A stretch of 64,000 nt of DNA, from the NCBI GenBank assembly GCA_000091205.1, contig AP006494.2; one strand, written 5' to 3'. Positions 1 through 63,275 of this stretch are shown piece by piece (position 1 is the first letter of the stretch; the number at the start of each line of letters is the position of its first letter). This DNA is from Cyanidioschyzon merolae. Lineage: Eukaryota. Both the position numbers and the translations under genes were made by a program. A model generated the notes under the pieces. It did no database searches. It had not been told where the DNA came from and saw only the letters and a list, made by a program, of their open reading frames with translations.

Positions 1-1008
1 GTCCAAAACCATGCACCATTCTAACAGGCGAGATGCGAGCCTCTAGGATCATATCAGTGAGACGCATCATGCTGCTGCCGTTAAAAGGCGTTGCGTCGAT
101 AGCCACACAGAGAAAAAGATTCGCCTTTCAAAGGGAAATTATTCATGGGCATGAACGAGTCCTTGAACTTTCGACATGAGCACGTGAATCAATCGTCAAG
201 AGACGACGCTCAGTTTTCCATTGGTCCATCCAGAGAATCCAATTGCTGCACACACGAGTTGACTTGGCAAAGAGATATCGAGAACTTGAGGAATGCATGA
301 TCTTAGCATGGTAGACGTAAGAAACGTAGAAGCTCGAATGCTTGTACGTATGAATTGGATGATCATATCGGTTATTTTACGATGCCTTGTTCGACGACGT
401 CGTGAATCATCTTGAGCACGGTGACTTGATAAATTCCAGCGGCTCCGAGACGAAGGAGCTTCTCCGAAAACTCCACTGAGCATCCCAAGACTCCGTATGA
501 AAACCATGGCGCTCACAGCTGCGCTTCGAATGTCGAGTCCGCACGTCTTAAACTAGGCCAGAACAAACTCGAAACGCTGGCGCAGAGCGAGCACTTCAGA
601 GGGCCATTTTATTCTGATAAGTGTGTGTGTGTGTTTGTAGCGTATGCACCAATTGCTCTGAGACAGACGGCTCTCCGAGGTTGTCGTGGAAAGCGCGGGT
701 GGCGACTCCAGTCCGCTTCTCCAGGGGGCATCGCTGCGACCGCGAGCAGCACTGCGAAGCGAGGGTCGCAGCCGGTGTTTGCATCGACAAACGCGAAAGC
801 TGCGACTCGGCAGCCGCACGCCATGCAACTTGAGTGCTCGCTGATGTGGTGGTGGCGGCGGCGGCGGCAGTCGCTGTCTTGGTGTCGAAGCTAGAACATC
901 GTTGCCCGCAAACACCAATTTCAATACCAGAAAGATGGACCTGCGTCAGATCAATTGTTTGCAGCTCACCCATGTGGACCAGGCTGATTGGAAACCTCGC
1001 TACCCGAG

Positions 1009-1617
1009 TCACGTCGACGTGCAGCCTGGATCATCGCAAGTATCTGCTAATGCTGCCTCGACAAGCTTACCAAGTCTTTTCTGTTCCCTTTTCAGTAGTT
1101 TCTTCTGCTCTTTCTCGCGCGCTCTAGCTTGCTCCTCTTCATAATCGGCAAGAGCCTTTCGAGCGGTTCGTAGCATGTCCAAGAGCTCTGGCCGTTTGCC
1201 CCTTGTTGCTTCAAGTTGCCGCTCTGCGTCCGCAAACGAGAACCAACGCCTCGGCCGTTCCCTGGACTCTTGCCACAGGGGATCACCGGGTCTGCGTTCC
1301 AGTTCCACGAGCATCAGAAACATAGTATGTTGTTCCCCGCTCCAAGGTCGCCATGTGCCAAGTTTAGCGAGTACTGTACCCTCGACACCGGCTTCCTCGC
1401 GCGTTTCGCGAACCGCAGCTTCTTTGGGGCTCTCTTTTCGCTTCACTCCTCCTTTCGGAAACAGCCACACTCGCGGGTCGTACTTGGAGCGAACCAGCAA
1501 AACCTCATACCGGTCACAGGGTCGCGCACTGGCTCCGGCAACTGGCTCGGCAACAGCGCTCGAAGCCACGGGCCTCGTGGGGACACAGCCCGCGACTTTT
1601 CGCCCTGAGCCGCCCAT
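1009..1617 (-). CDS. Nudix hydrolase, diphosphoinositol-polyphosphate phosphohydrolase (DIPP/Aps1)-like
   Basis: Canonical Nudix box GGVKRKESPKEAAVRETREEAGVEG (GX5EX7REUXEEXGU). Context LLVRSKYDPRVWLFPKGG resembles NUDT3/DIPP. ATG at 1617 confirmed on the minus strand. Confidence 0.8.
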   Translation of the reverse strand: MGGSGRKVAGCVPTRPVASSAVAEPVAGASARPCDRYEVLLVRSKYDPRVWLFPKGGVKRKESPKEAAVRETREEAGVEGTVLAKLGTWRPWSGEQHTMFLMLVELERRPGDPLWQESRERPRRWFSFADAERQLEATRGKRPELLDMLRTARKALADYEEEQARAREKEQKKLLKREQKRLGKLVEAALADTCDDPGCTST

Positions 1618-1879
1618 GTACTAAAAACATTCACTGTTTCGCTTCGAGATTATATGTAAGAAGTACAAACTTCCATGAACGACCAGGGTTTGCAAAGAAA
1701 GCCCTTGCCGAGTGAAGAAGAGTCCCTGGAGTACTCAACAGCGGTGCATACGCATACCAGGGATCGTGTCTGAGCAACGAAACGCTGAGGCGTAGCGGTG
1801 TCGGGATCCCCGACGATTAGCTGGTGGACCTCGCACCGCGCGATGCAATGCCCTCTGGAATGCTCGGTACCCTAAACGC

Positions 1880-2311
1880 ATGGACATGATGGGTATCGCA
1901 TTGCTCCGGATACTCCGCGATCCTTTGATACTCTCGATCACTTTCGAGGCATGGACATGATGGGTATCGCATTGCTCCGGATACTCCGCGATCCTTTGAT
2001 ACCCCCCGATCACTTTCGAAGCATGGACATGATGGGTATCGCATTGCTCCGGATACTCCGCGATCCTTTGATACCCCCCGATCACTTTCGAAGCATGGAC
2101 ATGATGGGTATCGCATTGCTCCGGATACTCCGCGATCCTTTGATACTCTCGATCACTTTCGAAGCATGGACATGATGGGTATCGCATTGCTCCGGATACT
2201 CCGCGATCCTTTGATACTCTCGATCAATTTCGAAGCATGGACATGATGGGTATCGCATTGCTCCGGATACTCCGCGATCCTTTGATACTCTCGATCACTT
2301 TAGAAGCAGAG
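1880..2311. repeat. 72-bp minisatellite, about 6 tandem copies; last copy degenerate
   Basis: Unit atggacatgatgggtatcgcattgctccggatactccgcgatcctttgata(c/t)(c/t)c(c/t)cgatcactttcgaagc begins at about 1880, 1951, 2023, 2095, 2165 and 2237. It lies between the divergent genes at 1009-1617 (-) and 2403-3878 (+). Track ORFs across it (1735..2187 -, 1951..2175 +, 2237..2509 +) are repeat artefacts. Confidence 0.9.
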
Positions 2312-2402
2312 ACATCATGGGTGTTACGCTTTCGTTCAGCTTGCGCTCGGGCAGCGACGGCTACGATGCGACGCTCGCGGGCGCTGACGAGATCTGGGCG
2401 AT

Positions 2403-3878
2403 GTGCTGTGGCCTGCAGCACAGAGGAGTTGCTTGCTAGCACTGAAAACGTGGTTGTTGAACTGTGGTCTCGAACGTTGCGCCAAACAAATGCAGTCATT
2501 CACTGTTGACGGACTTGAGTCTGTATTGAATGATGGATCGAAGTTTGCATTCGTACTTAGCAACCCGCGATGCTCGCTGGTGAGCCAGAGCGTTCAGCTG
2601 GAGCGAGCGCAGCTCACGCGCCGTCCTATTCGAAGACGCCGGTGCGTGCTCAAAATCAACAGCCTAGCGCAGCTTCTCTTCGCATCGTCTTGGGCAGCTT
2701 ACGGGTTCCGCGAGCTTGAGCGCCGTTTAGAAGGGCGCCTCGTAACAGCGGGTGCCAGAAGACCCGTGCACGCGGGCGGCGTCGGGGTACCACCCTCGTT
2801 TGCCGGTTCGCAGTACCAGACTGTGGTCGTGTGGCTTCGAGAAGGTGAAAATCTAAGGCTCCACGACAATCCAGTCATAGAAAAGGCACTAGCACTCTCC
2901 AGAGAGGGAGCCAGTACCCCCGATGCGGGCAGATCGTCAGGTCCCGACCAGTCTTCGTGGTTGCCGACACGTTTGTTGCCCATATTTATCGAAACGCCCT
3001 GGGACAAGCATGGACGACTGCGCACCTGGCGACAGCAGAAACAAGTTAGGGAATGCGTTCAGTTCCTTGGGGAGGCGCTCCACCAAACCGGCAGTGGACT
3101 TGTGTGGGTTCGCGTCTCTGACACACACCTGACGCGTCTCGAGGATATGGCCAATTTGAGGACTGCTGCGCTCGTGGAGACCCTTGCATCCCTTGAGCTT
3201 CACTCTCTGACTGCGGTGACGTATCCTTGCGGCGGGACCCGATTACAGGGTCTCGAAGAGGAGATACTCGTTCAGCGCCTTGGCTCCAGCACAGATGCTG
3301 ACGCAGCAGCGAATGCTCTGCAACGCCGTGCTATGTGTCGCGCGATTCGGCTCGTCAGCGTTCAGGATACTGCGAATACGCTGTTCGCGTTGGCGCGGCT
3401 CCCGTTCTCGATTGCAAAGATGCCCGATGATTGCGATGCGTTTGCGCAGGCCCTGGACACACTGGGAGAGCCCGAGCCAAGCCAGCATGCACCGGTCTCA
3501 TTACCGCCTCTGCCCCGCGAAGCACTGGATTCTCCTTTTTACTACAATCCCGAAATCGTATCCGGAAAACCCCCGATGGTCGATTCCCCTGATGCACACC
3601 AACCCTTTCATGAGCAATTCGTTCTCGAAGCGCTTGAAGCGTATGCCAAATCCGAGACGCCGCTCGTCATGATTGCTGATGATACGATTCAAACACGGAG
3701 CCAGGGCATCCTTGGGGTCGCCATGGAGCTGGGTTGCCTCTCGCCGCGGCGCTTCTGGCACGCTATTCGAGAGCATCTTCCGACAACATCCATTCGTCGC
3801 CAGTGTGCGTGGTTTGATATCATCCTTCACGATTTCGTACGTTTATTGACATGGAAACGTGGTATTCACCCAGCATGA
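2403..3878 (+). CDS. Hypothetical protein, 491 aa as tracked, no recognisable domain
   Basis: Long uninterrupted ORF with coding-like composition. The tracked start is GTG; the first in-frame ATG (MQSFTVDGLESV...) is at about 2490. Confidence 0.4.
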   Translation: MLWPAAQRSCLLALKTWLLNCGLERCAKQMQSFTVDGLESVLNDGSKFAFVLSNPRCSLVSQSVQLERAQLTRRPIRRRRCVLKINSLAQLLFASSWAAYGFRELERRLEGRLVTAGARRPVHAGGVGVPPSFAGSQYQTVVVWLREGENLRLHDNPVIEKALALSREGASTPDAGRSSGPDQSSWLPTRLLPIFIETPWDKHGRLRTWRQQKQVRECVQFLGEALHQTGSGLVWVRVSDTHLTRLEDMANLRTAALVETLASLELHSLTAVTYPCGGTRLQGLEEEILVQRLGSSTDADAAANALQRRAMCRAIRLVSVQDTANTLFALARLPFSIAKMPDDCDAFAQALDTLGEPEPSQHAPVSLPPLPREALDSPFYYNPEIVSGKPPMVDSPDAHQPFHEQFVLEALEAYAKSETPLVMIADDTIQTRSQGILGVAMELGCLSPRRFWHAIREHLPTTSIRRQCAWFDIILHDFVRLLTWKRGIHPA

Positions 3879-4054
3879 ATCTTTCTGATACGCTCCGTGT
3901 CGCTCAGGAGCGTCGCCTGATTGCATGCGTACGCAGTGGATTGTGCTAGTGCATCTGAACAACATGTTGCCTCATCTAACTGGTTTCTAAAGCAATTACC
4001 GGGACGCATTCGTCGCTCGTGAAGAGCGCCATCGAAATCGAGTGCTAAGCGTCA

Positions 4055-4573
4055 CTACTGGTGCCTCTGGTCCATTGCGTGCTCGCGGAGGAGCGCAAGC
4101 GACACCACACGCAACGCGTTCTCGTGACAAGCCTCGAGGATGACCGGCGGTGCGACCCCTGCGTCATACGCTTCCTTCCATCGCGATGCGCATAGACACC
4201 ACTTGTCCCCTGGTCGAAGTCCGGGAAAGCCAAATTGCAGGGCAGGCGTCGACAAGTCGTTCCCGCGCGACGCAGTGAAAGCCAGAAACTCCGCCGTAAC
4301 GCGAGCGCACACCGTGTGGGACCCGATGTCCTCTGGACCTGTTGCACAGTAACCGTCGCGATAGAACCCTGTCCGAGGCTGGAAGCAGCAGGGCGCGAGC
4401 GGCCCCCCTAAAACGTTGCGAGGCCGGTCTGTGTTGCCGTTCGGGGCAACCATGCGCACTGGCTGGAACGCGAGCGCCCGCCACGATGAAGCTGCCCAGT
4501 CAGCCGAGCTCAGTGTCTGCCGAGCTGGCGGGAAAGAAAGCGAGTTAGCGAACGGTAGCGCGTTACTTCTCAT
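4055..4573 (-). CDS. DUF2237-family conserved protein
   Basis: 172-aa ORF. The central region GGPLAPCCFQPRTGFYRDGYCATGPEDIGSHTVCARVTAEFLAFTASRGNDLSTPALQFGFPGLRPGDKWCLCASRWKEAYDAGVAPPV matches my memory of the bacterial-type DUF2237 domain. I could not verify this against a profile. Confidence 0.5.
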   Translation of the reverse strand: MRSNALPFANSLSFPPARQTLSSADWAASSWRALAFQPVRMVAPNGNTDRPRNVLGGPLAPCCFQPRTGFYRDGYCATGPEDIGSHTVCARVTAEFLAFTASRGNDLSTPALQFGFPGLRPGDKWCLCASRWKEAYDAGVAPPVILEACHENALRVVSLALLREHAMDQRHQ

Positions 4574-10215: not shown

Positions 10216-11149
10216 TTTCAAAGCAACGCAACACACGTTGTCTCGTCGAAAGGAGCGCTCCCAGGCGAGCGACACCCAGATCGCGAACGCAAGGGTTTCC
10301 ACTCGACAGAACGTTGACGCAGATCAGCGTTCTCTGATTTCCTATTCAACAGAGCGTTTACGTGGACCGTGGATCCCAGATTGCGTGATGCATATTGGTC
10401 ATCGAAATAGCGTCCGTCATGCTGTACGCTACGTCCAAGTCCCATTAGCCATATTTAACCTTGAATGTGCTCGTCGTTTCGTACGTTCTGTTACGCGTCG
10501 AGTCTGAGGCGATGGTCCGCCATGGCGCCCACAGCGCTGGTGTGGATGCGCCACAGAGACAGAGCGGCATTGCCACATCACTGGAAGCGACAGCTCGTGA
10601 GCATCTCGACCGATACGAAGCTGGAGATGCCGGAGCAATCACCCGATGGCGCTGCTGCAATCACGCCCGCAGACAGTTCTCGCACGGGATACGCACCGCG
10701 TATACAGTGGATCGCCGAGTCCAGCCCATCTCGTGATAGAACGCACCAGTGAGCGCGCAGTTAAACCAGCATAACCGACGTTGCCTGGATGAATCCTGTG
10801 CCTCTTCTGGACTCGTATGGAGTGCGCATGAAAACGGCACAACAGGTGTTACCTCAGAGATACGGATTCGTGATATCGCCATGTACCAGCTTAGAACCGC
10901 ATGTAGTTCCGCAAAGCATACCATCACAGATGCACTGCTTCGGCAGTATCCACACGGAAGCCTCACGTGCCGCTGCGGAAAAAACGCGGGAAATTGCGCG
11001 CGATCCATTTTCCCTTCGATGATTCGAATCGCGTCCATCGCTGCGACACGCCCCCGAGGCCTACAACGCGTTGCCGAATATCTCATTCTAAACGATTCGT
11101 TAGCGAATAGTTTGTCCGTGTCAGCTCATTCGTTGACGAGTACTGGATC

Positions 11150-17696: not shown

Positions 17697-19289
17697 TCAA
17701 ATCGCATCGAGGTCTTCTGGATCCATTTCTACGAAATGTCGGTGTTTGTCGTTGAATATATAGATGCCAGTCAAGGGGTCGAGCTCAAAAAATTGAGGTT
17801 GCCACGTCTCTCCGGTCTGTTCGCGAAGGCTTCGAAGCTCACGCTCACACGCCTCAACTCGACGTTTCTCGACCGTCGCTCGTTCAAAGTCATTTCGTAG
17901 AAGCGCATCGGCTGTGGCCCGCCATACCGTTCGCGCAAACTTGGGAGGTTGCTGGGGTTCCGGTGGTATCCAGACCTGGATGCGACACCGTTCATAAACA
18001 TCACCTGCATTGTAGAGCAATCGAGTCTCACCATTGGTAAGATCCTTCAAATAAATACAATCGTCCCAACGTCCGTAGAAGCGGTAGCGTTTTTGCTCAT
18101 GGACGTACAACTTGCCTTCTACAGCGTGTTCGCTGCCACGGAGTCCAGCAAGAGACACTCCGCTGAAATCGAATTTGGCGAGAAAACCGAGCTTGGGGCA
18201 ATGAAAGATGCACTTTCCGATGCACTCTAGCTGCTGTTTGCCTACACCCAGAATGCCCGAGAATACCATCGCCGGGCGCGTCAGAATGTATTGTTCAACG
18301 TCTTGGGCGTGGGTGAGCTCCATGAGCGCGTGCCCAGCCATTTCAATCTTGAGAGAGTTTCCGCCGAAACTCGGGCGCGGCTCCATAACCGTATGGATAC
18401 GAACGCCAAGTCGACTATTCCGCATGTGCATGGCGGTTCGCGGTGGATGGTGCGATACCTGTTCGCAAAACAATGACGTAATGCCATGCGACGCCTCTCG
18501 GTGGGGAAACGCACACATGAACGTCTCGCCGAGGACGGGGTTAAATGGTTTCCGCAGCGAGCACTGGTTCGGAAGCCCGGATAGAAAGTACTGCATGCCC
18601 TTCAGAAAACGCTCGAAAGGATCGGGCTCGGTGGCCCAGGCTGCGAGCAGCTCTCCGTAGCGCATCGCGAGTGCTACCTTCTCTGTCGCTGAGAGCGGCT
18701 CCAGCAACCATGCCGGTAATGAGATGCTTGGCAAGAGTTCGCCAGCTTTGAGGTTCCGGAGAACCTGTTTGGCTATCTGGACAATGGAGATAGGCGTTTG
18801 TTCGACGGTTGCGCTAAGGCTCGTCGTGATGCGCTCGTCTCGTCGAAAGCCCCGTTCGTAGAGCGCTCGCTCGGTGGCGCTCCACGACTCCGAAACCTCT
18901 GCAGGCGTCTCTGGTGTCTGGGTCACAAGCGGCAGTCTATCGGCATCAGAAACACTGGCATCGGCATCGGCATCGGGGGAACACGAGCCAGGTCTCGGGA
19001 ACGGACTTGCTATGAAGGCACCCGCACCCGAAAGATTCGCCAAATCACTGTCTGACAGCGGTTCGTCGGCTGCATCCAGAAACTCCGTCAGTGTCTGAGA
19101 CAAATCTTCGGTTTCTAGTGTCTCGGCAGTCAGCTCCTCGCCACTGTCGCTGCTGTCGAGTAGGTTGCCGTCCGCCTCCAAGGCGGCCAAGACTTCGCGC
19201 CAGTCGCTCGCAGTCAAGAAACGCTCAAGACTCCGACTATGTCCCCGAGTCCTGACGTCATCGACCGGGACTCTGACTGTGGAGTCCAT
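17697..19289 (-). CDS. Oxysterol-binding protein (OSBP/ORP) family lipid-transfer protein
   Basis: OSBP fingerprint EQVSHHPP is present (FCEQVSHHPPRTAMHMRN) within an ORD-like region. The tracked start at 19334 is GTG; the ATG (MDSTVRVPVDD) is at about 19289. Confidence 0.85.
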   Translation of the reverse strand: MDSTVRVPVDDVRTRGHSRSLERFLTASDWREVLAALEADGNLLDSSDSGEELTAETLETEDLSQTLTEFLDAADEPLSDSDLANLSGAGAFIASPFPRPGSCSPDADADASVSDADRLPLVTQTPETPAEVSESWSATERALYERGFRRDERITTSLSATVEQTPISIVQIAKQVLRNLKAGELLPSISLPAWLLEPLSATEKVALAMRYGELLAAWATEPDPFERFLKGMQYFLSGLPNQCSLRKPFNPVLGETFMCAFPHREASHGITSLFCEQVSHHPPRTAMHMRNSRLGVRIHTVMEPRPSFGGNSLKIEMAGHALMELTHAQDVEQYILTRPAMVFSGILGVGKQQLECIGKCIFHCPKLGFLAKFDFSGVSLAGLRGSEHAVEGKLYVHEQKRYRFYGRWDDCIYLKDLTNGETRLLYNAGDVYERCRIQVWIPPEPQQPPKFARTVWRATADALLRNDFERATVEKRRVEACERELRSLREQTGETWQPQFFELDPLTGIYIFNDKHRHFVEMDPEDLDAI

Positions 19290-20101
19290 AGCACCAAACC
19301 GGCGCCCACCGCGACTAAGCACCTGGGAGCCCACTGCGGTTGCCGCTCACAGGCTGTATTGGCAAGTTGCGTGAAGAATCCCGGGTACGGTTTTGAGCGC
19401 TTGGCGGCGTTGGGTGGCGTCGTTTCGACATCCCTGCTGCCTAGCTGCAACCAGCGAGGATTATGGGTTTGTTTAGGGACTTTCAGCTCAAGTTTGTTCC
19501 ATTCTCGTCGCGTATCATCGAGCGCTTTTTCGTAGTGCATGGCAGGAGATCGTAATCACCATGCAACGTGTTGTATAGAGAGAAGGGAAATTGAATGAAG
19601 GACATTGATTCTTGACTGAACTGAGCAAGGAGGACTGCGTTCTTCACTCAGGTCAGTCATACTGCAGTACTCTTACGGTTGAGGAACACTGCAAGAAAGA
19701 CGTGTATAGGCTTCAGAGCAAAAACCGATAGTATGAAAGACTGCTCGTGGTCAACGGCAGAAAACGACCCGTTGATTGTCTTTTTCGGAAAGCAAAAGCG
19801 ACAATAGGAGACGCCACGGGGTCTCTATTCCTCACCAGCTTCTTCGAGTTGTTCGAAAACACTGGGATACAGTCGCGAAAAGTCGAGTCCTAGTTTACGC
19901 ATGACTATCTTCCATTAATCAGAAAGTCAACGTTCCTGGGACGTCATTGTCGGTATGCAGCACCGGGACGTCGCTTTGTTTGTTTCAGTGGATGAGACGT
20001 CATTCGGACCAGAGGGTCGGTAATCACACGAGTACTCGCGGAGAGGGAGCCTGTGTTGTGTTCAAGGGAACTGTTAGAGAACGATGACGTCAGGTATTCT
20101 A

Positions 20102-20935
20102 GGGATGTTGGATTCTTTTGGATGTCTCAGTTTCATTTGTAGAGAAGGCTCATACGATCGCTGTCTCGAATCATTGAGGTCTTTTCCCAGGCACCTGGTG
20201 ACGTCCCTCTATTGGAAAAAATGGTATTTCACCGTTCCCGTGCGTACGAACTGTTGCTGATTCTATCGGGGGTAGAGCTGCTTTTCATTCCAAGGTGCTC
20301 TCCGTAGTTCAGCCCCATCGATAGAGTGTTTTCCATTGTGGACCAAAATTGATCGCTCCACTCGGCGAAACGCAGAAGCGTTCAGCATACGGTAACGCAT
20401 CGGGAGTACACGTTTTCTTTCTTCTGGAAGCCCTTCCCCATCCGGAAAACTCCTTACCTAAGGGCATAAAGAAGTTCGCTCATTTGAAAAATGAAAAAAT
20501 TTACGTGAATGCTATGCATCTGGAAGTCGAGGGTGCTGAAAGTTACTCATCGCCGGTTTTGGCGAAAATTAGGAAAAAAATCCTCTTCACGCCAACCACC
20601 AAGCGAGCAAGAGCAAGTGATGAAGAGCAAGAAGAAAAGAACAAGAGCGGATATGAGCGAGAAAAGGTGTTTGTCCGACGGGACAATGACGCGAATGTAG
20701 TGGCACAGAGGGTGCGAGTTCTAGCAATTCTCGCTTTGGTGCGTTCAACCAGCGGCAATGCACGCGAGGAGTCCATGAATCGTGACTTCAACGCCGCCAT
20801 CAATACCAGATGATACGCGGTGTTAAAGTCAAGACCCGAGGAGCTGACGAAATCGAACTTTGTATGGCAGCCTCTCAAGGCCACAGTGAGCAAGTAGAAA
20901 CTGAGGCCGATAGCAGGCGCCGGTCAGAAACCACA
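20102..20935 (+). pseudogene. Degenerate TnpB/Fanzor-like RuvC-nuclease gene remnant, copy 1, including a conserved roughly 120-nt 3' flank
   Basis: ORF 20349..20813 ends ...VRVLAILALVRSTSGNAREESMNRDFNAAINTR*; RDFNAAINT is the TnpB-superfamily RuvC-III motif. Upstream in other frames: a RuvC-I-like GMLDSFGCLSFICREGSYD at about 20105, and a RuvC-II-like NAMHLEVEG at about 20510. An in-frame stop lies upstream at about 20322. The 3' flank is homologous to the flanks of copies 2 and 3. Confidence 0.5.
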
Positions 20936-23900
20936 GGGAAGCGCCTGTGAGTAGGTTTCAGTTTACCCTACGGTGGTGGCATGTTTTCGCTCCGTTAAAC
21001 TTTTGGAAATGCTCAGTAATATCGAACTACAGATCACTATGAGATATCATGAATTCCCTGAAAAAAATCGTCTGCGTGTATGTGCACGGCATTCAAGTCT
21101 TGCTGGAAGGCTGAAACGCGTACCTGACCGGTGCCTTGCTCCCAGCAGGCACCGAATACACGCTCTCCTGGCCACTGATTTTCTGTATCACAAGCCTTCC
21201 AAATTTCAGCACAATCCCCGAAATGAGTACTGAACGAATCTTTCTCAAGTTCGGTCGCCCCAAAGTCGCTGGGCGCTTTGCAAGCACGAGGCGTTCTCGA
21301 TGCCGACCGAGGCGTTCAGGTTCCAATGACGAAAGCGCTCGAGCGTACCGTTGTCAGTGCAAGCACACCATACCAAGCGTCTAAGCGCTTCGATTGTCTC
21401 GCAATATGAATTTCAGTCTTCGAACAGGATACCATATCAGGTATATTGCTCCATTCTGTTCTCTTGTTCTCTATCTGTTTCAGTGAGCACCCGTGCTCAC
21501 TGATGCTTTTATGTTATCCTGAACGCCTCGAAGGGAATCAGACAGAATCGAATCCAGGACCTGTTCTACGACCTCGTCGACGGTACCGCATTCCAGCCTT
21601 TTCGCACTGCAACACGTCCAGCCCTGTGGGCTACCATCAAACGGAACGATTCGTCGGTCACTTGGTTTTCCAACGCATCATGCTCGTTGGCGAATGCATG
21701 CTTTCTGTCTCCATATAACAGATAGCGTTGGCGACCCCAGCGCTCTCCCAGGTATTCCAGCCAAAGATCGTCTCCGAGCGTCCTCTGGACGCACAAGTAC
21801 TCTCTAGACGAAGCGTACATAGCAATTCGCTCTGCGCAGTAGGGTCCACGGAGCGTCGGCAAGACTCTGTTCAAAGTCATTCCCCTTGCTTGTATGCCTC
21901 CTGGCGCCGATTATGTGCGAATGTCGTAAATATCGAGCCCAGGAAAAGTTGAGCAGCTTCATCTGCTTCTCGTTTACATCGTTGCCTGCCTCCGTGCCCC
22001 AGCCCTGGCGATATGGCGACAGCTGTGATGCCCGTCAACCCGAGATCTACACCCTCGTCGAAGTCTCTCTTGTCGTCTACCTTTAGCGGTTGATCATGAC
22101 TTTCGTTGCTCGACTCAGACCTGATTTTTTAGAGACTGAATGCAGTATGACGTTCCGTCAGTCTCCATCGTTTCTGCGAGCCTCTTTTCATTTCTGCCAT
22201 GTAATCGAGCAGCGTTGAACGAGCGCCGTCAAAGCTCCTCGTAAAGTTTTTCGGATGCTTCACGCTTTGTCGCAGAGGGACGATCTTGCTTCGCAGTGTG
22301 CTTTACTCGGCGAGGTGGCAGGGTTGTGGTCACTCTACTCCATAATCGATCTTTGTCTCCTGGAAAAATACGCACTGAGTGGAACGTTGGATTGGAACCT
22401 GGCTCGTCTATCTGTGTATTCACGTATATGGACAAATCCTCAAATCCTTGTTCGTAACCTTCCCCGTCGTGAACACGCCCAAGGATCGAAGCGCCTTATT
22501 CGGTACCCTCCCGCGCACCATGAGCAGTAGCGCAACACAGCATATTAAGGCTAATCGATGAAGAGAACGAAATGTCGAAGAAATTCCGTGTCATGGTTGC
22601 GAACGGCTCGTGAATTCAACTGTGAGCTCTAAAACAGAGTTCGGCAACAGAGCGCATACCTTCGACTGGATGCAAACTGGGCGAATGTGTCTGCGCGAAG
22701 AGCAGCTCACTGCCAGTATGCGCTGCATACGCCATGAGCGCTTTTAGTCATGGAACGCCACGTTGTCCAGAATAAGGGCGGAGGAGTGTGCGAAGCGGAA
22801 GTCACAAAGTGTGCCTCGACGAAACATGCGGTTTTGAACGATCCTATCTATTTGGCGACTGGCAGATGATCACAGACTGGCATCGCCGCTGGCGCGGATG
22901 TTGTCGGATACTCGCTTGTTGCTTCTTCACGATCAGCAGCCTTCCCTTCTTTCAATACACATATTGAGGTCTGCTTTTTCCCCAGAATGAATTCTCATTG
23001 AATGAGACCATCATTCGTCTTATGAGTTATAAGCGGTCGCAGATCAGTGTGTGAAATCTGTAGTGCATTTGCCAGCGCACGACCGTGTCGCAATAGAGGC
23101 GAGCATTTTTCTTCGTCCGTCGATGTCTCTTCTTCACCGCTCGAGTTAACGGTACGGACACTGCATATTCTGCGGCTGCTCTGGTTGTAATTGTTCGAGA
23201 ACACATGCATTGGAATGGATAGAGGACAAGGCAGTAATGTTCATGGAGTTTAACTTGTTCTTTCGCGGATACACGACGTTTGGAACGAGAACCATCAGAG
23301 GGGCGCTTCAACCACTTGCTGACCGCACAATGACTGGCCGCAACGAGTAATACCGTTTTTCGCGTGCCTGCAACGACAGGATCAGGTCTTTCCGCTGACT
23401 TTCTCCAATCCATTGGATATTTTTTCTGCTGAATATTTGCCAGGAAACCAAACCAAAACAAAAAGCACATTCTTATTCACGTGTTCGAGAATGCACTCCT
23501 CTAAGCATACTGCTTTAGCGAACAGTGGTTCAAGCACTGCTGCTGAGCTTGGTACTTGCAGCAGCGAAAAGGCGTTATTTACCTGTAAAGTGCGTTCGAT
23601 TCGAAGGAGGCACGAGGCTTGCACAAGCGCGTCCAGTGCGGATTCAGCGAGTCTGTTCAGATTCGGTGCATCGGTCACTAATCGAAACCATAGCTTTGTC
23701 CTTCGGTCAGGCTCGCGTGAGCGCAGAGCGCGAGGACCGCTTCGGCCTGAAAGGCTGGATCTAGCGGCCCTCTACGAGCGTCCACAACAACGACTCAGTT
23801 CCTCGAGGGGTCCGACTTCGATCCAGAAGTTTTCTCTTATTCGCCCCAGTGCAGTAACGGGAGACAGAGAGGAAGCGCGGCGACACGAAGATCGCACCAC

Positions 23901-43779: not shown

Positions 43780-43860
43780 TGTATCCCGTCGGCTGCGGAT
43801 CAGTTCTGGGCATTCTCGCGCATCGACTCATGTCGGATTCATATAGAACGGATCCATTAA

Positions 43861-44901
43861 CTCTGTCGCACACTCTAGCGTTTGGGCCTCGTTCCCTGGT
43901 CATGAATACCAGCACTTGCGGGTATTTTATGCAACTGCTCCCGCTTTCCTATCCCTATCTCTGACTTTAAATACGCTGGTGTCTCCTTTCCTTACAGCTT
44001 CGTTGTACGAAGACGAAGGATGTTGATCGTGAGATTGGAGCCCCAACTTCGCAGCCCCGATCTGTTGTGCAACTATGCCATGCACACCCGGGAGTTGCGA
44101 TCTACGGTTCGCATGCCACTTGCATCTCCCTAGTATACGGAAACAGTGCGCCCTTCACGGCTGCGAAACTTGAATATGGTCAGGGGTATCCCATGGTTCC
44201 CCGCTGGCCCTCCGAGCACCACTACATGGCGCGTGAACGCCCGTTTCATCGCTCGGTACATGCCCTTGACGGATGTAGGAGGATTGTATGGAAGCGTCGC
44301 TTAGCGTCTGCACCCGGTGGCCGTTCCAAGCGATCACGGGCTGCCTCTGGGTGATACGTGCTCCACTTACGTCCTCGGTGCACTGCATATGCAAACACGT
44401 GTAGTCGCATTTTTATGACGTGACTTGTGGAACGCATCGTTGTCCATCATGCAACAGGTATCGGGAGGAGAATCCAGGTTCGGGATCCAGTCCAGCACTA
44501 CCGATTCGTCTGGACTCCACTCCTGCAATGCAGAGTCAGACGCTGCACCGGCGGCGGTCGCTGTGATGACTCACGTCCGAGTCCGAGGCCACATCGACGC
44601 AAAATGAGGACTTGAGAGCGTCCGGGAGCATCGCCGCTGCGTCGAGTCATGCTGCCGCCACACGTCATTTTGTCGATGCGCGCCACGAGAAAACGACGCG
44701 TGTTTCCAAAGCAAGCGATTGGTTGGAGTGAAAGGTTCAATAAATTAGCTGAATGAGGTTGTGAGCAATTCGTCAACCGCCAATGTCGAGAATTTTTTGT
44801 CGTTCATCCAACGGAGCGAATCGCAGCGTCCTCGAGTTGCCCCGGAATACAATGATCAAAATCGTGGGGTGAACGTGATTCGAGCATGCCACAAGTAAGG
44901 G
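43861..44901 (+). repeat. Dispersed direct repeat, copy A (1,041 bp; roughly 99% identical to 61525-62565)
   Basis: Colinear match from ctctgtcgcacactctagcg... to ...cgagcatgccacaagtaaggg, with about 11 substitutions and no large indels. A weaker similarity continues for about 25 bp beyond the 3' edge. It contains only short ORFs that I cannot place (for example 44067..44354). Confidence 0.9.
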
Positions 44902-45214
44902 GAGAAGTCGAGTGGAGGCTCTTGTATAAAAATTCTATTGTGATCTCCGTTATCTTACGAACTCTTACCCGAGAGGCGTCGCGAATCATCTCAGTTCCTG
45001 TCACCAAACGCGTCCCAGCAACACGGAGTCGGACACGACACTTCAAATCGACGACAGAGCGTCCTAAAACTCGTATAAATCAGTAAACACCAACTGGTCG
45101 CACATCGGATCATGAGAATGCACATGTAAGAGTGAGCGAAAAGAACGAAGTGCAGAAACAGAGCGCCCAGTACAATGGACAATTTTCATTTGAAATAGCT
45201 CGTCGATGAAACAA

Positions 45215-46527
45215 AAGTTCATGTAAGATAAATGAATTCCGGCAGGGAGATGCTTCTCAGCCTTTTCGGTAGGCCCGCTGCTATTGGTTTGCGCTTCTCC
45301 TGGTAATCATCGAGCCTGAGAGGCTGCCCTACGATGTTGGCTCGCGTCAGCTCTGCGGGCTCGTCTCCAGCACCGCACACCGTCTGATATTGAAGGCCGC
45401 GTCAAAGTCCCGGTTCACAAACTCAACGCGTTTCTTTCTGTTGGTGTAACACACCAATTCAATGAGTCCTCGAACTCGTGCCCTCATTGCCATTTGTTCT
45501 CCTGTCAGATCTCTGTACTCTTGTAAATCCTCCGGGCTCCGCTGGCACTTTTCCATCTAGACCTCCTGATGTGTACACCCCAGCTCATGGTGCATATAGA
45601 ACGTTCGGAAATTCATCAATGGGTATTGTGACAAAACCGTGTGCGCACTTCTTATACGTTCTTGTCGTTGGAGCTGGTGTACACCCTTTTTTCGACATCC
45701 AGCGCCCTACTCCGTATGCTACTTCGAGCCTTTGATCCTTGTCCGCCTTGAGGGCGCTAAACTCACTGAAAAATTTCGTGAATGCACCCTCTTTCCTCCG
45801 TACAGTTTCATGCGCAGACGAGTCCACCGGGGCTTTGCGTACTCTTGCCACAACTCCTCGTCATGAGCAGCTTGAGTTTCTATGAATTCTAGAAAAGCTT
45901 CAAAGTCCGCTCCTCTGCTCGCCACCTGGCTGATCACTTCCAGGTGCTCCTTCACTGCTGAACTCAACGTCTCACTTTCCATCGTCGCATTCATTACTCC
46001 CTAGTCTCTATCGTATCTCGCTCTTTCGGACTTTAAGGAAACGTACGTCTTTTGGGGTAAGCTGCCGTCGATACGATATTCCCCATGCTTGGATGCTGCG
46101 ATGGTCATGATAGTCGTGTTCCCGGGGTACGGGCCGATTACGACAAAGGCGTTCTTGTCTATCTCCTGCGTCACAGGACCCGCCTGCTTTTTTTCATCGT
46201 GCTTTGCCGAGGGCGATATCGAAAACACAACAGGACGATCCGCCTTCAACAGCCGATCGTGTACACATATGGCTGTTCCATCGGTTTCGATCATCCCAGT
46301 AAATACCTTTTTCTTGCTCGTATTGAGACGTTTGAAATCGAAGATATTCTTCCAGTCCGTCTCTCGGTTTCCGCCGGTAACTCTGTTTTCCTTACATCGA
46401 ACTCCGGACAGATCTCCTTCATGATGCTGTAAATGGCGCTGGAGTCGATGGTCACAAAATGTGACTTGATGTTGCATAACGGAACGACAGTGAAGCGCTT
46501 CTCCATTAGGAAAGATATCCGTTCCAA
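45215..46527 (-). pseudogene. Degenerate TnpB/Fanzor-like RuvC-nuclease gene remnant, copy 2, with the conserved 3' flank
   Basis: ORF 45347..45556 ends ...MRARVRGLIELVCYTNRKKRVEFVNRDFDAAFNIRRCAVLETSPQS*, which is a RuvC-III motif homologous to copy 1 (RVRvLaiLaLV....NRDFNAAIN). A RuvC-II-like VKEHLEVISQ lies in ORF 45719..45994, and a RuvC-I-like [16 protein letters not shown] in ORF 46291..46527. The parts are separated by in-frame stops and a frameshift. The 3' flank (about 45215-45346) is shared with copies 1 and 3. Confidence 0.5.
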
Positions 46528-48556: not shown

Positions 48557-50482
48557 ATGAACGTTTTCGAGGAGGAAATTGCGAGAGCGGTGGCTCTTAC
48601 CGAACGGGCAGTGCTGACGCGGGAGCCGCGCCTCATCGCCCGTGTCCTGCGCTCGCTGGGGAAGCTAAGACGGTGCTGGAACGGAAGACTCTTTGAGCAT
48701 CGTACCAAGAAACTTGAGGCCCTTGTTGCATCTGAAATCATTGCGGTTGATCTCTTTCCAGAGGACGCCGAGGCGCTGAAAGAGGAGCAAAGAAAGAAGC
48801 AGCGGGCACGTCAAACGTCCAGTACCGGCGCTGAGCAGACCGGCACCGACTCGACGAAGACGGGTCAGAAAACAGGAACGCCCGACGAAGCATCAGAGAC
48901 ACCAGTCGAAGAGACTAACGGTAAATCCGAACGAGAGCTTGGCGCTGTTCAGCGTTTCGAGTACGCGGTGAAGGACCCGGTGCTCGCTGCACAGCACGCG
49001 CATGCCGCACTTCGCCGGCTACTGGAGCGGTTGGAGCAAGGCGACCCGAGCGCACACAACGCAGTCTTGCTCGAAGATGTAGATGCGGCACTAGAACCGC
49101 TCTTGTCACGTAACCAACGCGCCGCCGCTGCGGCGAAGGGCCTTGGCGTGGTGCAGCCTTTGGCTGCTACGCGGTCCGAGGCTAGTATGATCTTGTCGAA
49201 CGGGGTTTCGACGGATTCGCAGCCAAACGAAACAGCTGCTGCTGGACTAACGAAGCAAAATGCAAACGCTCGCCAAATGTCTGGAGTATCGTGGCATGCG
49301 CTTCAACCGGAGAGCCTCGTGCTTTTGCATCTGCTTGTCGTCTACTACCTGCTCGACGCACATGGTGACCATAAGCTGCAGCTCCGTGCCGTGGACTGCG
49401 CGGATCGCCTGATTTCGCTCTTGGATCGAAGTCCTCGGCGACATACCATGGACGAAATCGCAGCACGCTGCTACTATGCTTTTACGCTGGCCTACGAATG
49501 CGTTGGACGTCTTTCGGAATGCCAACCGCGCTTGCTGAAGGCTTATCGCACTGCTTGCGTTCGTCGCGATCACGCTGGTCAAGCCGTGCTCTTGAATCAG
49601 CTGCTTCGCTCCTATGTTCTGGAACGGCGCTACGCGCAAGCGGATCAATTGTACAATCGCGCTCCATTTCCCGACATTCGGAGCAACAGTCAGCTGGCTC
49701 GCTATTTCTACTACATCGGACGAGTGAAAGCTATACAACTGGATTACACAGAGGCATTTCGTTGCTTGAATAACGCGCTGCGCAAAGCGCCTCAGCACAT
49801 GGCGACTGCGTTCCGGATAACGATTCTGCGATTGCTGGTACTGGTCCAGTTGCTCATGGGCGAAATTCCAGAGCTCCAAGTATTTCTTGGAGAGCGCTAC
49901 GCTCCTGATGCTGCTGTATTTCGGCGAGCCATGTACCCTTACTTGCAGATTGCAAACGCAGTACGTCGCGGTGATCTCCAACGTTTTCAGCAAGTACTTG
50001 AGGAGAATGCCACCTGCTATGAACAGGACGGCAATGGCTATCTCGTTCGGCGACTTCGCCACAATGTCATCAAGACTGGACTTGCTCGCATCGTGGCTGC
50101 CTACGCCCGCATTCCTCTGAAGGAAGTTCAGGAGATTCTGGGCCTGGATGATAGCTCCAGCACCGAGAATGTGGTGGCGAAGGCCATTCGTGATCGGGTC
50201 ATTCGGGCAAATATTGATCGGGATCAACAGTGTCTCGTGTCGGCGAGCCAAACTGACCAGTACCAAGGTCGCGAGCCGGCACGTATGTTCCATGAACGGA
50301 TTCAGTTTTGTATGGACCTCCATGAAGAGGTACTTCGCGCGATGCGCTTCCCAGACGACAAAAGAAACGAAGCCAACCTCGAGATCTTGCGCGAGATGCA
50401 ACGCGATGAGGCCAAGATCGAGCAGGCGCTCGCTGAAGGAGCAGAACCCGGCGACGAGGACGATACCGATGATATCCTCTAA
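48557..50482 (+). CDS. RPN3: 26S proteasome regulatory subunit RPN3 (PSMD3; PCI domain)
   Basis: [91 protein letters not shown] is near-identical in pattern to PSMD3 [59 protein letters not shown]. ATG at 48557 verified. Confidence 0.9.
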   Translation: [641 protein letters not shown]

Positions 50483-51685
50483 TAGTGCTCAGCTATGACG
50501 TATAAATGATTTCGCATGGTATTCGAGAAGCACACCAGAGGGTCCTGCATCCATGCCGTGCGAAATGCATGGTGACTTCGGCGTTGACCGCACGCCTATA
50601 TTCAGAGCAATGCGGTCTGGAGCACAGCTGCAGTCGCGCGTTTTTGTTGGCTTGGTTTTTTGACGGGCTTTCGGAAGAGAAATCTATCTTTTAGAGTGGA
50701 GAAAACTGGCGGAAAGCTTTTAGGGTGTCATTGCTAGCTGGCGAGAAATGGCCTGACTTGCTCAAGCCAGACATTTTACGGTCAGCAACTGGATGAACCA
50801 ATGTGCTCTTGGTGCCTATTCTGAACGTTGCGTGCCGAAAACGGGGCAAACGGAACCCAGTAAACACATGGTTATCTGCTGATCAATCCATTCCATTGCA
50901 TACGTAATCTGGGAAACACCACAACAGAACGCATAGTTTGTGATACTTCCGTGCCGTTGGTCCCAAACGATGATGAAATGGTGTGGACGGACAAGAAAGA
51001 AAGTACTTTTCTCTTGATGATCGACGAGATCTGAACAACATATGACCGATTTCGTAGTAAGAACGGAACCGCGTACCACAGGAGGCACTAGTCTTTGTCT
51101 TACGTGGCGAGAGTTTATCCGGGAAAAGTGGTAGACCTGCATATGTGTACTGAACTAAAGACAAATCCGATGTTCGCAAAGAAGAGGCAAACGAGCATTC
51201 CGAAACCATCAGCACCAGTGGCGATGCTATCCTATGGTCGTCAACAAGTCGCCAAAAGGATACGATCGTTCTATAGCGCATGCTTCATCGACGCTTTGTG
51301 CGACATTATCTTCGCATACTCCGCTAGTCTGCTCTCAGAGTGCGTATCATTCCGCAACCCAGAAGTATTTGAGGACTATGCTGGTTAGATTGGTGCTCAG
51401 CTGATCTCTGTGCCAGGCTATTCGCGATGGAGCACACCGGTCGAAGGCGAGTCCTCCTATGCCGAACGTCCTTTCTATGCTGAAGAATCAATAGACGGGT
51501 ATTTCGCATTTTATCGAAAGCGAAAGCTACGGGACGCTAGGAATGATCGAGCAGCTTCGTACTCGAGGGAGGCTCATCTGGCATTCCTCGCCTCGACGTA
51601 GCTCGCTCAGCAAATATCCGCAGGAGCTCTGGACGCAGCTCTGCAAGCTGTCCAGATTCTTACGGAATTTATCCATCAAACTTTC

Positions 51686-53035
51686 GTGCTTGAACACAAC
51701 GCATGTTCGAGACAGAAGATGCAGCACGGCCTGACCGTTGGACCAGAGATTTGCACATGCGCTTCGCGGAAAATTCTCGACGCTCCGCAGTGCGACGTTG
51801 CCGGTCGAAGCGTCTCCAGCACAGGTGTCAAAAAGGTTCAAACACGCCTGAAAATCCTAAACTGTATATTGTTCAATGTCGAGGGCGTCGTGAATTTCGC
51901 CTCGTGGGCGTTGCACCCGCAGCACACTGACCCAGACATATGGGCTCTGGAGGAAGGAACTCTTGGCGTGACAACGGGCGCGAATGACGAGCTGTTGCCA
52001 AAAGAGATCAAAGAGGTAGCGAGCATCGACGAGATGTTGCAGCCAGAGCGAGCGTCGCTTCAGATCATCGGATCTTATCGTGTTGCTCTTGATCTCGGAA
52101 CGATGGGCGTCGTATGCAAAGGACGCTTCAAACATGAGGTCTGCCTTCCATTGACAAGCCGTACTATGACGTTTTCCTGAACAAAGCCCTCGAGAGCAAA
52201 CAGGATGTTCGCCCCGATGCCGAGCGCTCGGATCTTGCTCAGGCGTTTATTTAATCTGGTATCTATGTGGCACTTCAAGACCCTGCGGATCAGTGTAGAC
52301 ACTTCTGTATTGTACGGAATGACCTGTTCAATGCGGCACGGCTACTCTCTTGAAGCAAATATAAAGCTTTCGAACAAATTCGCAAGCAGCATTGGCGGAG
52401 ACGATCCAAGTTCCTCGTTTACGAGGGGGGATTCGGAACCGAGTCTCTTTCCAGGAGGTGCGCACTCGCCAACTTGTTCAATATTCTCGAAATGGAAATG
52501 ACCGATAAGCCGCGTCGCTCTTATTGGCAGCGAATGGCGCTGCCCGTGCTGTATTCCACGAAAGCCGCACCCCGACTCTACCGACGACAGCGACAAACGT
52601 TTGCAGGAATCGATTCTGTACGATCTCTGTCGATAAGTACAGGGCGCCGGATACCTCCCATGACCGGAGCATATGACCACGCTGAAACTGGTACAGAAGC
52701 AGAGTCGAAACCGAACCGCAGTCACGAAACGGTCGACTCTCATTTGAGCTAACTCCAGGTATCGAGACAATTTGAGTTTACTGCCCTGTTAAAATGTGAT
52801 TGCGCAAGCAACCAAGCGCACAAGCATATGCTGCATCGAGACCTGAACGCCTCGATCAACATTGCGAAATGTGTCGTGCTGCAGGAGCCTCAAACGGCAC
52901 TGTGTCGATAAAACTTTCGATGGAATCTTCTCGGGCTCCTTACAGGCGTTCTGTTGAAATGGGTAAGACTTTCAATGAGAAACAAAAGTATCAGCCATTA
53001 GAGGGGCGATTCCTTGCCCGACTGTATCCGGGCAC
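51686..53035 (+). pseudogene. Degenerate TnpB/Fanzor-like RuvC-nuclease gene remnant, copy 3, with the conserved 3' flank
   Basis: Hand translation of 52753-52911 gives ...LLKCDCASNQAHKHMLHRDLNASINIAKCVVLQEPQTALCR*, a CxC remnant plus the RuvC-III motif HRDLNASINI. Its tail KCVVLQEPQ is homologous to copy 2 RCAVLETSPQ. A RuvC-II-like FNILEMEMTDKPRRSYWQRMALPVLYSTK in ORF 52474..52752 aligns with copy 1 NAMHLEVEGAESYSSPVLAKIRK. A RuvC-I-like YRVALDLGTMGVVCKGRFKHE lies in ORF 51686..52180. The three parts sit in different frames and are separated by stops. Confidence 0.5.
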
Positions 53036-54184
53036 TGGTATGAACCTGGTCAGCAATCCAGCAAGGCCTGGACGCCGTCTCTCTATATTCGGGGAACGAG
53101 TTTCCCGAGCGACTGGTGAACGACAATCCGAATCCGTTCTGCCATACTACTTAGCGTGCAAGGACCGAGCGTCCACGAAACTGGTCGTCGAGTGGAACCC
53201 ATCGCTTTGAGTACATACGCTCATGGATGGCGTGCGGAAAGCACTCGTGCGCTGCCGGCCCTGTGCAGCATTCATGAGCGACGCATCGCTTCTAATGCTC
53301 TCGCCTCCACGAACCAGATTGGAAGCACTCGTGCTCTGCGGGTATCGTCTTACACCCACGAGAACCCGACCCTGACAGAATGGTGGAAGCAGCAGCGTCC
53401 ACCGCAGAACGATAAACGCACATGGTGTCGCACGAAAGACGCAAATGATCGTTTCGAACGACGTTTGTGTGCTCAGGATCGTCTTGCGAACATCTGTTGC
53501 GAAACCCTTCCCATATACCCACCCGGTTCCATATCCAGAGCATGCCTCTAAGCAGTGCAGAGCTGTAACTGCAAGCGCGCCCTACACAAACACCCGTGGT
53601 ATCTTGCAACGATCAACAGTCGCTGCCGCCTTCGGATGCTTCTTGATGGCACGAATCGAGCAGCCGAAGCGAGCTTCACTGCTCATCCGCGCTTAGTGAG
53701 GTCTCTGCATACACGTGATCCGCTAAACGTTGTTTTCATAGATGCATGTAAAGCGCGTCCACCAGGACCTGGACATGCCCCGCGCCAAAAAGTCTCCGCG
53801 GATTGCGGAGCGCTTTCTGTGAGCTCGCCAGCGACAAGCGCTTCTTGTTGCAGAGTCATGCTGTACTAGGTCTCTTTATTCGTGTGGCGTTGAGCGTGAG
53901 TACGCTTAAAACAGTACCGAACTCGCCATGAGGTTCGCTTGTACACAACGCGCTCCGGTTTCGCGTGGAAAGCTTTATCGCCGGATCTGCATCGAACGCA
54001 GCTGGGCGCCGGTAGAGGGCGCTCATCTCCATTGCCGCCAGCGTCTATGATCCATTGCACATGCAAACTGGCACGCTGTCCAGTCCAGGTAGGTTCCGAC
54101 GCTGTACGCGGCAGGCAGGCAGTTTGGACACTACGAAGGCAACGACCGTCCGAAGCGTGCATCGAAACCACGATAGGTTCGCGT

Positions 54185-62565: not shown

Positions 62566-63275
62566 AAGCTGAACTTTGGAGGTTCGCACACAAGTACTGT
62601 ACAGTGATATATATTACTTTACAAATCCTTCGCTACAGGGCGTCACATTTCGTTTCGATTCCCATGACGTAAAGCATGTCAGCAACACCGCGTCCAAAAC
62701 GTCAATCCGAACACAACACCGAGTATTGTTCACCTACAAATGAATCCGTAAGCCTTTCTTCCTGTCCTTGGCATGTCAAGTCCGTACATCTAGAAAAACG
62801 TCGGATTTTATTCTCAAGGCATGAACAGAGCCAGCAGTTTAGCGTTTCGTTTTCATCCGAAACGAGTACTGCAGTGCGATCAAGTGCAGCACCAGCATGT
62901 CAGGCGTCCATAGCAGACCCCTTTCTAGCCATACTCCTCGAAAGGATGTTGCTGCATACGCAACGCTGTCGATTCCGACACCTTCATGGGTGCCGCATGT
63001 ACCAGCTGAGCAAAAGTGCAACCCCACAGGAAACCAGGTGCACGCCATGGCGCCTTCTGTACAAGGACGCGCGATTCATCGAAAAGCCAACATATAAGAA
63101 AAGAAAAATGCGCATAATCGGAGAACGCTGGCCTAAGTAAACGTTTTGTCAATGGAAAATCGAAAAGCCAACGGGCGCCCCTGGATTACCATGCATCGTC
63201 GTCGTTGTGAAAGTTTCGCACTGTGGCGTTTCCTTGGATACTGCTCGGCGACGATTCATAACTTTAGTGTATGTC

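Follow-up and report, generated by a model that had tools for sequence, protein, structure and literature searches.

Remnant of an internally deleted Fanzor1 transposon upstream of an oxysterol-binding protein gene in Cyanidioschyzon merolae

The locus and the anatomy of element A

The DNA analysed here, referred to below as the window, is a stretch of 64,000 nucleotides from Cyanidioschyzon merolae (NCBI GenBank assembly GCA_000091205.1, contig AP006494.2). Upstream of a gene for an oxysterol-binding protein (OSBP; 17697-19334, - strand; Pfam match with an expectation value (E) of 1.3e-53) it contains a remnant of an internally deleted Fanzor1 transposon, which we call element A or copy A. 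A preliminary description of this DNA had placed a decayed nuclease gene of the Fanzor/TnpB superfamily here, ending in an RDFNAAIN block, with OSBP as its neighbour and in an AT-rich stretch, and these claims are borne out. The 154-amino acid (aa) open reading frame (ORF) at 20349-20813 (+) ends in ...SMNRDFNAAINTR directly before its stop, and the guanine-cytosine (GC) content is 0.49-0.51 over 20-24 kb as against 0.55-0.60 in the flanks. We consider it very probable that the ORF belongs to the 3′ part of a dead, non-autonomous Fanzor1 transposon of the published family CMe-1/CMe-1A, in the genome of C. merolae 10D. The strain is recognised by the RPN3 ORF of the window (48557-50482), whose product is 100% identical to RPN3 of 10D.

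The Fanzor1 family of copy A has already been published for this genome. The paper that defined Fanzor lists one Fanzor1 family in C. merolae (Bao & Jurka, 2013, Mobile DNA 4:12, PMC3627910). The consensus of its element CMe-1A is 3169 bp long, with ~150 copies that each match it at ~80% identity. CMe-1A lacks terminal inverted repeats (TIRs), is of unknown transposable element (TE) class and codes for a Fanzor1 protein of 734 aa, CMe-1 (CMe-1p below; Bao & Jurka, 2013, PMC3627910). We took the CMe-1A consensus from Additional file 2 of that paper and compared it directly with the window. Residues 645-723 of CMe-1p align with 20706-20939 at 52% identity over 79 aa, interrupted by two in-frame stops (tblastn, E 1.6e-15; the preliminary description had proposed a tblastn check of this kind), and at the nucleotide level consensus positions 2828-3109 align with 20696-20970 on the + strand (nhmmer, E 1.9e-24). 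The block that had been read as RuvC-III, N-R-D-F-N-A-A-I-N at 20778-20804, aligns to CMe-1p 670-678 and is indeed that motif. A hidden Markov model (HMM) of the family matches 20625-20810 (E 1.5e-5) and finds no Fanzor match on the + strand upstream of 20625.

A weak second match of copy A joins consensus ~868-975 to ~20471-20583 (+; nhmmer, E 0.0065). A Smith-Waterman alignment of consensus 860-1070 with 20440-20705 scores 22, against a null of 9.5 +/- 1.5, and none of 2000 random window segments reaches 22; we therefore take this match as real. Residues 17-48 of CMe-1p also align, weakly (tblastn, E 0.068) but collinearly and adjacently, with 20572-20667. Overall, copy A is ~70% identical to the CMe-1A consensus. 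Its features, all on the + strand, are as follows.

19473-20989, +: whole element A, internally deleted Fanzor1 transposon remnant, ~1.5 kb (collinearity with metagenome locus L004, boundary alignments)
19961-20394, +: decayed DDE_3 (Tc1/mariner/IS630-type) transposase remnant with frameshifts and four stops (PF13358)
20471-20695, +: end of the Fanzor 5′ untranslated region, start codon and about the first 56 codons with the basic N-terminal region, frameshifted (nhmmer, Smith-Waterman, tblastn)
20514-20516, +: Fanzor start codon ATG, opening 'MHLEVEG...' (alignment of consensus 868-969)
20696-20705, +: internal deletion junction, joining ~codon 56 to ~codon 643 of the 734-codon ORF (consensus jump from ~1050 to 2828)
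20706-20954, +: Fanzor1 C-terminal ~90 codons, from CMe-1p aa 645 (tblastn, HMM alignments)
20778-20804, +: RuvC-III motif N-R-D-F-N-A-A-I-N
20811-20813 (TGA) and 20895-20897 (TAG), +: premature stops in the Fanzor C-terminal part
20952-20954, +: frame-closing stop of the Fanzor C-terminal part
20955-20989, +: 3′ terminal non-coding end of the element (alignment A5)

The boundaries of the element were found by comparison with metagenome loci; a metagenome scan with CMe-1p had returned 344 related stretches, from which 80 loci were kept. Positions 19607-20988 align with L004 (274-1577) as a single collinear piece (nhmmer, E 1e-129), and 19606-20703 aligns to L064 and L065 (nhmmer), two loci in which a decayed but full-length Fanzor gene follows. 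The 5′ boundary falls at 19462-19479 across four independent loci with unrelated flanks, similarity setting in with an invariant TTA at 19473-19475 (alignment A4). At the other end, similarity stops after ...GGCATGTTTTCG at ~20989, eight copies being alike up to ...TTTTCG and divergent beyond it (alignment A5). The element thus spans ~19473 to ~20989, and the start at 20102 given previously was arbitrary.

The deletion removed ~586 codons (~1.8 kb), corresponding to positions 2665-4424 of the full-length L064. The catalytic residues of CMe-1p are D431 (RuvC-I), E603 (RuvC-II) and D672 (RuvC-III), the first two lying 241 and 69 aa before RuvC-III, and copy A keeps D672 alone. The RuvC-I-like and RuvC-II-like segments that had been proposed 135 and 90 aa from RuvC-III must accordingly be reassigned: the 'LDxxG' is part of GMLDSFG (read from 20102), which lies inside the DDE_3 remnant, and 'HLEVEG' at 20517-20534 aligns with MEKEVEDPG, the consensus Fanzor N-terminus. 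The N-terminal half of the protein is unrecoverable, as had been stated, but the cause is the ~586-codon deletion and not decay beyond recognition. The CxxC...CxxC zinc finger is indeed absent, but this is in part typical of the family, since even the intact CMe-1 consensus has only two cysteines between the [TS][TS] motif and RD. Copy A encodes no nuclease. With two catalytic residues missing, premature stops, frameshifts and only ~70% identity to the consensus, it is most likely a fossil without function, and the earlier call of a pseudogene is correct.

Copy A also differs from the published element. The first 868 bp of the CMe-1A consensus, which include a 635-bp part like the element TE-N2_CMe, were not found upstream of copy A (score 13 against a null of 12.7), and a DDE_3 remnant stands there instead; a further difference is the ~1.8-kb internal deletion. 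At the 3′ terminus, the last 60-80 nt of the consensus give only marginal matches in copies A and C (copy C is introduced below), up to consensus ~3083, and the alignment of copy A ends past ~3109; copies A and C and several metagenome copies are unaligned beyond consensus ~3090-3109. On the other hand, copy A lies in the same genome as CMe-1A and aligns directly with the consensus over its C-terminal ~280 bp and its ORF start region; neither has TIRs, and divergence is comparable (70-78% identity in the window, 'about 80%' as published). Judged by these alignments, copy A would belong to the same Fanzor1 lineage as CMe-1A and, because the 5′ 868 bp are absent, would represent a variant subfamily with another 5′ module and not CMe-1A sensu stricto. 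Besides copy A, the window holds three further Fanzor1 remnants, copies B, C and D.

The deletion junction, the transposase module and the 3′ end

The internal deletion is not confined to the window. Locus L030 aligns straight across the junction of copy A with high posterior probability, and L004 carries a deletion at essentially the same place, its alignment being poor just 5′ of the junction. Loci L016, L017 and L081 each contain two inverted short copies that start at consensus 2833-2840. Since the same junction occurs at other loci whose flanks differ from those of the window, it is most simply explained by a short form that multiplied as a non-autonomous element, presumably mobilised in trans. 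The alternative is that the Fanzor1 element was still full-length when it inserted here and lost its interior in situ, so that the short form never transposed. Resident transposons commonly undergo internal deletions, and copies B and D of the same window carry different, private ones. This explanation would nevertheless have to account for a junction (consensus ~1050 to ~2828-2840) that recurs in L004 and L030 and, as two copies apiece, in L016, L017 and L081, and for the fact that the flanks of L004 are unrelated to those of the window and its neighbouring genes differ; we regard it as unlikely.

The segment upstream of the Fanzor start resembles a transposase gene. A stitched translation of 19961-20394 matches the DDE_3 profile PF13358 over positions 3-135 of 146 (E 1.1e-5, 25.8 bits), and 19970-20464 is homologous at the DNA level to positions 781-1276 of the metagenome contig L001 (nhmmer, E 3e-16), where the homologous ORF of 177 aa matches Pfam DDE_3 with E 7.7e-20. 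Positions 420-3810 of L001 form an apparently intact composite transposon with the following parts.

420-451 and 3779-3810: TIRs of 32 nt, starting with TA
471-728: short helix-turn-helix (HTH) ORF
751-1284: DDE_3 ORF (Pfam E 7.7e-20)
1520-3616: intact Fanzor1 gene, 698 aa (protein P0024)

This arrangement is shared with the Mariner-Fanzor1 composites PUl-1 (Pythium ultimum) and PGv-1 (Bao & Jurka, 2013, PMC3627910), in which a Tc1/mariner-type transposase gene lies directly upstream of Fanzor1 on the same strand; the intact relative L001 resembles them also in its 32-nt TIRs beginning with TA. In copy A, by contrast, the transposase gene has become a pseudogene, and neither TIRs nor TA duplications can be detected. 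No inverted repeat was found to join the ends of elements A, B or D. It is possible, if somewhat short of probable, that the C. merolae Fanzor1 elements descend from a Tc1/mariner-type composite of DDE_3 and Fanzor1 genes like that of L001, and that the short derivative, of which there remained just both ends, ~56 N-terminal codons and the last ~290 bp of the Fanzor gene, itself multiplied.

The history of copy A has very probably run as follows. In the ancestral element, a Fanzor1 gene came after a small DDE_3 transposase gene of the Tc1/mariner type. In the lineage of copy A, an internal deletion took away ~586 of the 734 Fanzor codons, and with them RuvC-I and RuvC-II; what it spared of the Fanzor gene was ~56 codons at the start and ~90 at the end, and both ends of the element survived. 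The shortened form spread, presumably mobilised in trans, and one copy inserted ~140-185 bp upstream of the OSBP gene. Since then it has decayed to ~70% identity with the consensus, and today it shows frameshifts and stops in both gene remnants and no detectable terminal repeats.

Several independent full-length copies have near-identical sequence directly downstream of the element end (...GTTTGTTTCCAGGGGT), as seen in the last 15 columns of alignment A6, which cover the flanks of L044, L049, L041, L013, L004, L032, L045 and L007. This shared flank points either to site-specific insertion or homing, or to an element that went more than once into copies of some other repeat.

The 3′ end bears on a possible guide RNA. 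Intact Fanzor1 proteins are omega-RNA-guided double-stranded DNA endonucleases with a single RuvC site and a RuvC-II glutamate that is displaced from its canonical place by ~45 residues (Saito et al., 2023, PMC10432273; Jiang et al., 2023, PMC10530073), and standalone 'ghost' guide-RNA loci have been described (Saito et al., 2023, PMC10432273). The CMe-1 clade keeps the catalytic residues and, in a predicted model, the Fanzor1 fold, and by analogy we infer that intact members of the CMe-1 family would perform RNA-guided cleavage. Full-length copies show a short GC-rich hairpin just after the Fanzor stop (alignment A6, columns ~244-260), with one compensatory C-G/G-C exchange (18 versus 15 distinct sequences among 55 copies); it might belong to the scaffold of a guide RNA or be a DNA hairpin of the element terminus. 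In copy A this hairpin is not recognisable.

Copy A might in principle be a functional ghost locus whose omega-RNA is used in trans by an intact Fanzor1 elsewhere. The deletion derivative keeps the last ~290 bp and the 3′ end, where Fanzor and TnpB guide RNAs are encoded, and the small 3′ hairpin of the full-length copies with its compensatory pair would fit such a role. Copy A, however, is only ~70% identical here and departs from the conserved 3′ terminus past consensus ~3109. For the terminal 300 nt at the 3′ side, compared across 55 full-length copies, RNAalifold finds no convincing global structure (-2.4 kcal/mol), and Rfam gives no match on 19.3-23.7 kb. We thus consider a functional ghost locus very unlikely, and the dead, non-autonomous element remains the reading that we prefer.

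Assignment to Fanzor1

Family membership was established mainly through copy C and its relatives. A stitched translation of copy C (-, ~47.2 to 45.2 kb) matches 24 predicted proteins (E 1e-144 to 1e-71, 46-56% identity), a profile of these 24 reaches 74 more, and 2082 relatives at E <= 1e-3 emerge when all 1.84 billion cluster representatives are scanned. An alignment of 70 sequences shows near-invariant D-P-G, D-E-F-R-T and R-D-x-N-A-A-x-N-I blocks, the last followed by R-P, with the R and D of RuvC-III near-invariant across the 70 relatives. The D-P-G block contains the RuvC-I aspartate (D431 of CMe-1p, D420 of the intact 698-aa protein P0024), which in a Fanzor1 protein is expected 125-275 aa upstream of the [TS][TS] motif, and the relocated RuvC-II glutamate, in the D-E-F-R-T-S stretch that holds this motif, corresponds to E603 of CMe-1p and to the near-invariant E591. 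Between the [TS][TS] and RD motifs, the zinc-finger stretch of CMe-1p has only two cysteines (C615 and C625), and the C4 zinc finger appears from these sequences to be degenerate in the CMe-1 clade. Some more distant relatives pass the cut-off of 26.3 bits for PF07282 ('Cas12f1-like TNB', formerly OrfB_Zn_ribbon), such as P0070 with 26.9 bits and P0091 with 28.1 bits. For many of the proteins P0001-P0097 the precomputed Pfam label is PF26935 (DUF8286), which appears to cover part of the Fanzor1 nuclease.

The fold comparison was made on the intact relative P0024 and not on the copy A fragment. Its AlphaFold2 model has a predicted local distance difference test (pLDDT) score of 88.7 and a predicted template modelling (pTM) score of 0.85. 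In a Foldseek search against the PDB, the top seven matches are the Fanzor1 structures SpuFz, GtFz and PpFz (from Spizellomyces punctatus, G. theta and P. parasitica), with E from 2e-16 to 8e-15, probability 1.0 and template modelling scores (TM-scores) of 0.52-0.71; Cas12f follows at ~1e-3. Among them, the omega-RNA-guided double-stranded DNA endonuclease SpuFz1 (PDB 8GKH, 9CEZ) is matched by the predicted fold of P0024 with E 2e-16 and TM-scores of 0.61/0.71. The two proteins have their RuvC motifs in common, and in both the RuvC-II glutamate is the relocated one that Jiang et al. (2023, PMC10530073) describe. The differences are a sequence identity of 14-16%, the loss of most zinc-finger cysteines in the CMe-1 clade and, in copy A, the absence of two of the three catalytic residues; the CMe-1 clade is known here from sequence and predicted fold. 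Given the conserved motifs, the PF07282 matches of distant members and the top Foldseek matches to Fanzor1 structures, the family is assigned to Fanzor1.

Prokaryotic TnpB (IS200/IS605 OrfB) and Cas12f share with the family the RuvC-III signature R-D-x-N-A-A-x-N-I and the overall RuvC/TNB core, and both the PF07282 matches of distant relatives and the weaker fold matches to Cas12f reflect this. In contrast, the family protein is much larger (~700 aa) and is found in a eukaryotic nuclear transposon context without TnpA. PF01385 and PF07282, which had been put forward as a check on the Fanzor/TnpB assignment, match neither copy A, copy C nor the close intact relatives tested, so that this check would wrongly have counted against the finding. 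As RuvC-III is common to TnpB/IS605, Fanzor2 and Fanzor1, the motif could in itself have come from a prokaryotic TnpB/IS605 insertion or a giant-virus Fanzor2. The best structural matches, however, are the Fanzor1 proteins SpuFz, GtFz and PpFz and not TnpB or Fanzor2, and the family has the Fanzor1-specific glycine (in AYGxG) ~33-35 residues before the alternative glutamate, described as G500 and E536 (Bao & Jurka, 2013, PMC3627910). The copies lie among nuclear eukaryotic genes, with no TnpA or IS607 serine recombinase. An origin from TnpB or Fanzor2 is therefore extremely improbable.

That the RDFNAAIN block arose by chance in a spurious ORF, or comes from some host protein family without relation to Fanzor, has practically no likelihood: the motif is short and Pfam finds nothing significant in the ORF, but the homology to the published consensus extends over ~250 bp and 79 aa (E 1e-15 to 1e-24), with in-frame stops and flanked by further pieces of the same transposon, and these tblastn and nhmmer matches to CMe-1/CMe-1A refute it. 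The degenerate DNA pattern for N-R-D-x-N-A-A-x-N has two sites in the window, at 20778-20804 (+) and 45389-45415 (-), where shuffles give 0.01 expected, a ~200-fold excess. The two sites are ~70% identical in DNA over 177 bp, and the second lies in copy C, the further copy that had been implied by numbering the first 'copy 1'.

Several observations weigh against a dead Fanzor1 transposon of the CMe-1 family as the origin of copy A. The DDE_3 score in the window, 25.8 bits, falls just under the Pfam cut-off of 28.6. No TIRs or clear target-site duplication were found for copy A, and its 5′ module differs from the 5′ region of the published CMe-1A consensus. Pfam gives no TnpB match in stitched copy C translations or in the closest intact relatives tested, and PDB sequence searches, whether started from one sequence or from a profile of 22, give no Fanzor or TnpB match, so that PF01385, PF07282 and PDB sequence searches alike miss the window copies and the close family profile. 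The link to TnpB consequently rests on the fold, the conserved motifs and borderline PF07282 matches in distant relatives.

Neighbouring copies, other repeats and significance

The other features of the window considered here are the three further Fanzor1 remnants, several repeats and one identified host gene.

48313 to 45241, -: copy C, near-full-length CMe-1A pseudogene (nhmmer, consensus 6-3089; blastn, 78% identity)
21010-23509, -: copy B, diverged Fanzor1 remnant (CMe-1A nhmmer E 2e-10)
50597-53157, +: copy D, diverged, of the type of copy B (CMe-1A nhmmer E 5e-13 and 6e-4)
10349-10628, +: isolated 5′ fragment (CMe-1A consensus 6-285, E 5e-37)
43858-44904 and 61522-62568 (also 25-360): 1047-bp direct repeat, 98.6% identical, copies 17.7 kb apart
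1878-2322: tandem repeat with a period of ~71-72 bp, about six copies, 94-97% identical (self-BLAST)
48557-50482: RPN3 ORF, 100% identical to a C. merolae 10D protein

Copy C resembles the CMe-1A consensus along its length, from 6 to 3089 at 78% identity, but has several stops and frameshifts, and its RuvC-I aspartate is replaced by tyrosine (GPYPG). Copies B and D are of another kind. Copy B shows 32% identity to CMe-1p over aa 502-686, copy D has an internal deletion between ~aa 333 and 509, and the homology between the two takes in a ~900-bp 5′ module (E 2e-64). With 25-32% protein identity to CMe-1p they are nearer the L001 type, and the 5′ module of copy B resembles L001, including its DDE_3 region. 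C. merolae may thus harbour, in copies B and D, a further Fanzor1 lineage besides the single family listed in the 2013 paper. Copies A and B are arranged tail to tail, ~20 bp apart, and the 'AT-rich island' at 19.5-23.5 kb is these two decayed Fanzor1 elements.

The isolated fragment at 10349-10628 is probably a copy of the short element TE-N2_CMe, which shares the 5′ 635 bp of CMe-1A. The 1047-bp direct repeat is apparently a non-coding interspersed family, also present in many metagenome loci (L005, L004, L070, L062, L002 and others). The tandem repeat lies mostly just upstream of a long ORF at 2403-3878 and overlaps the start of that ORF.

The general biological weight of the finding is small: a Fanzor1 family of ~150 copies had already been reported for C. 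merolae, and copy A is a dead fragment. Only two points are mildly new, a transposase module of the mariner type and a deletion derivative that recurs. For annotation, the AT-richer 'gene-poor islands' of the window are stacked decayed Fanzor1 elements and other repeats, not unknown genes. The standard Pfam models for TnpB miss the CMe-1 clade, for which profile- or structure-based searches are needed. The composite element of L001 is a good candidate for experimental testing. If both the composite descent and the multiplication of the short form are true, the 3′ segment, presumed to be the guide-RNA region, would be the cis-acting part required for propagation. The transposase remnant and the recurrent deletion derivative give a hint as to which class of transposon this Fanzor1 family, hitherto left unclassified, belongs to and as to what it requires in cis.

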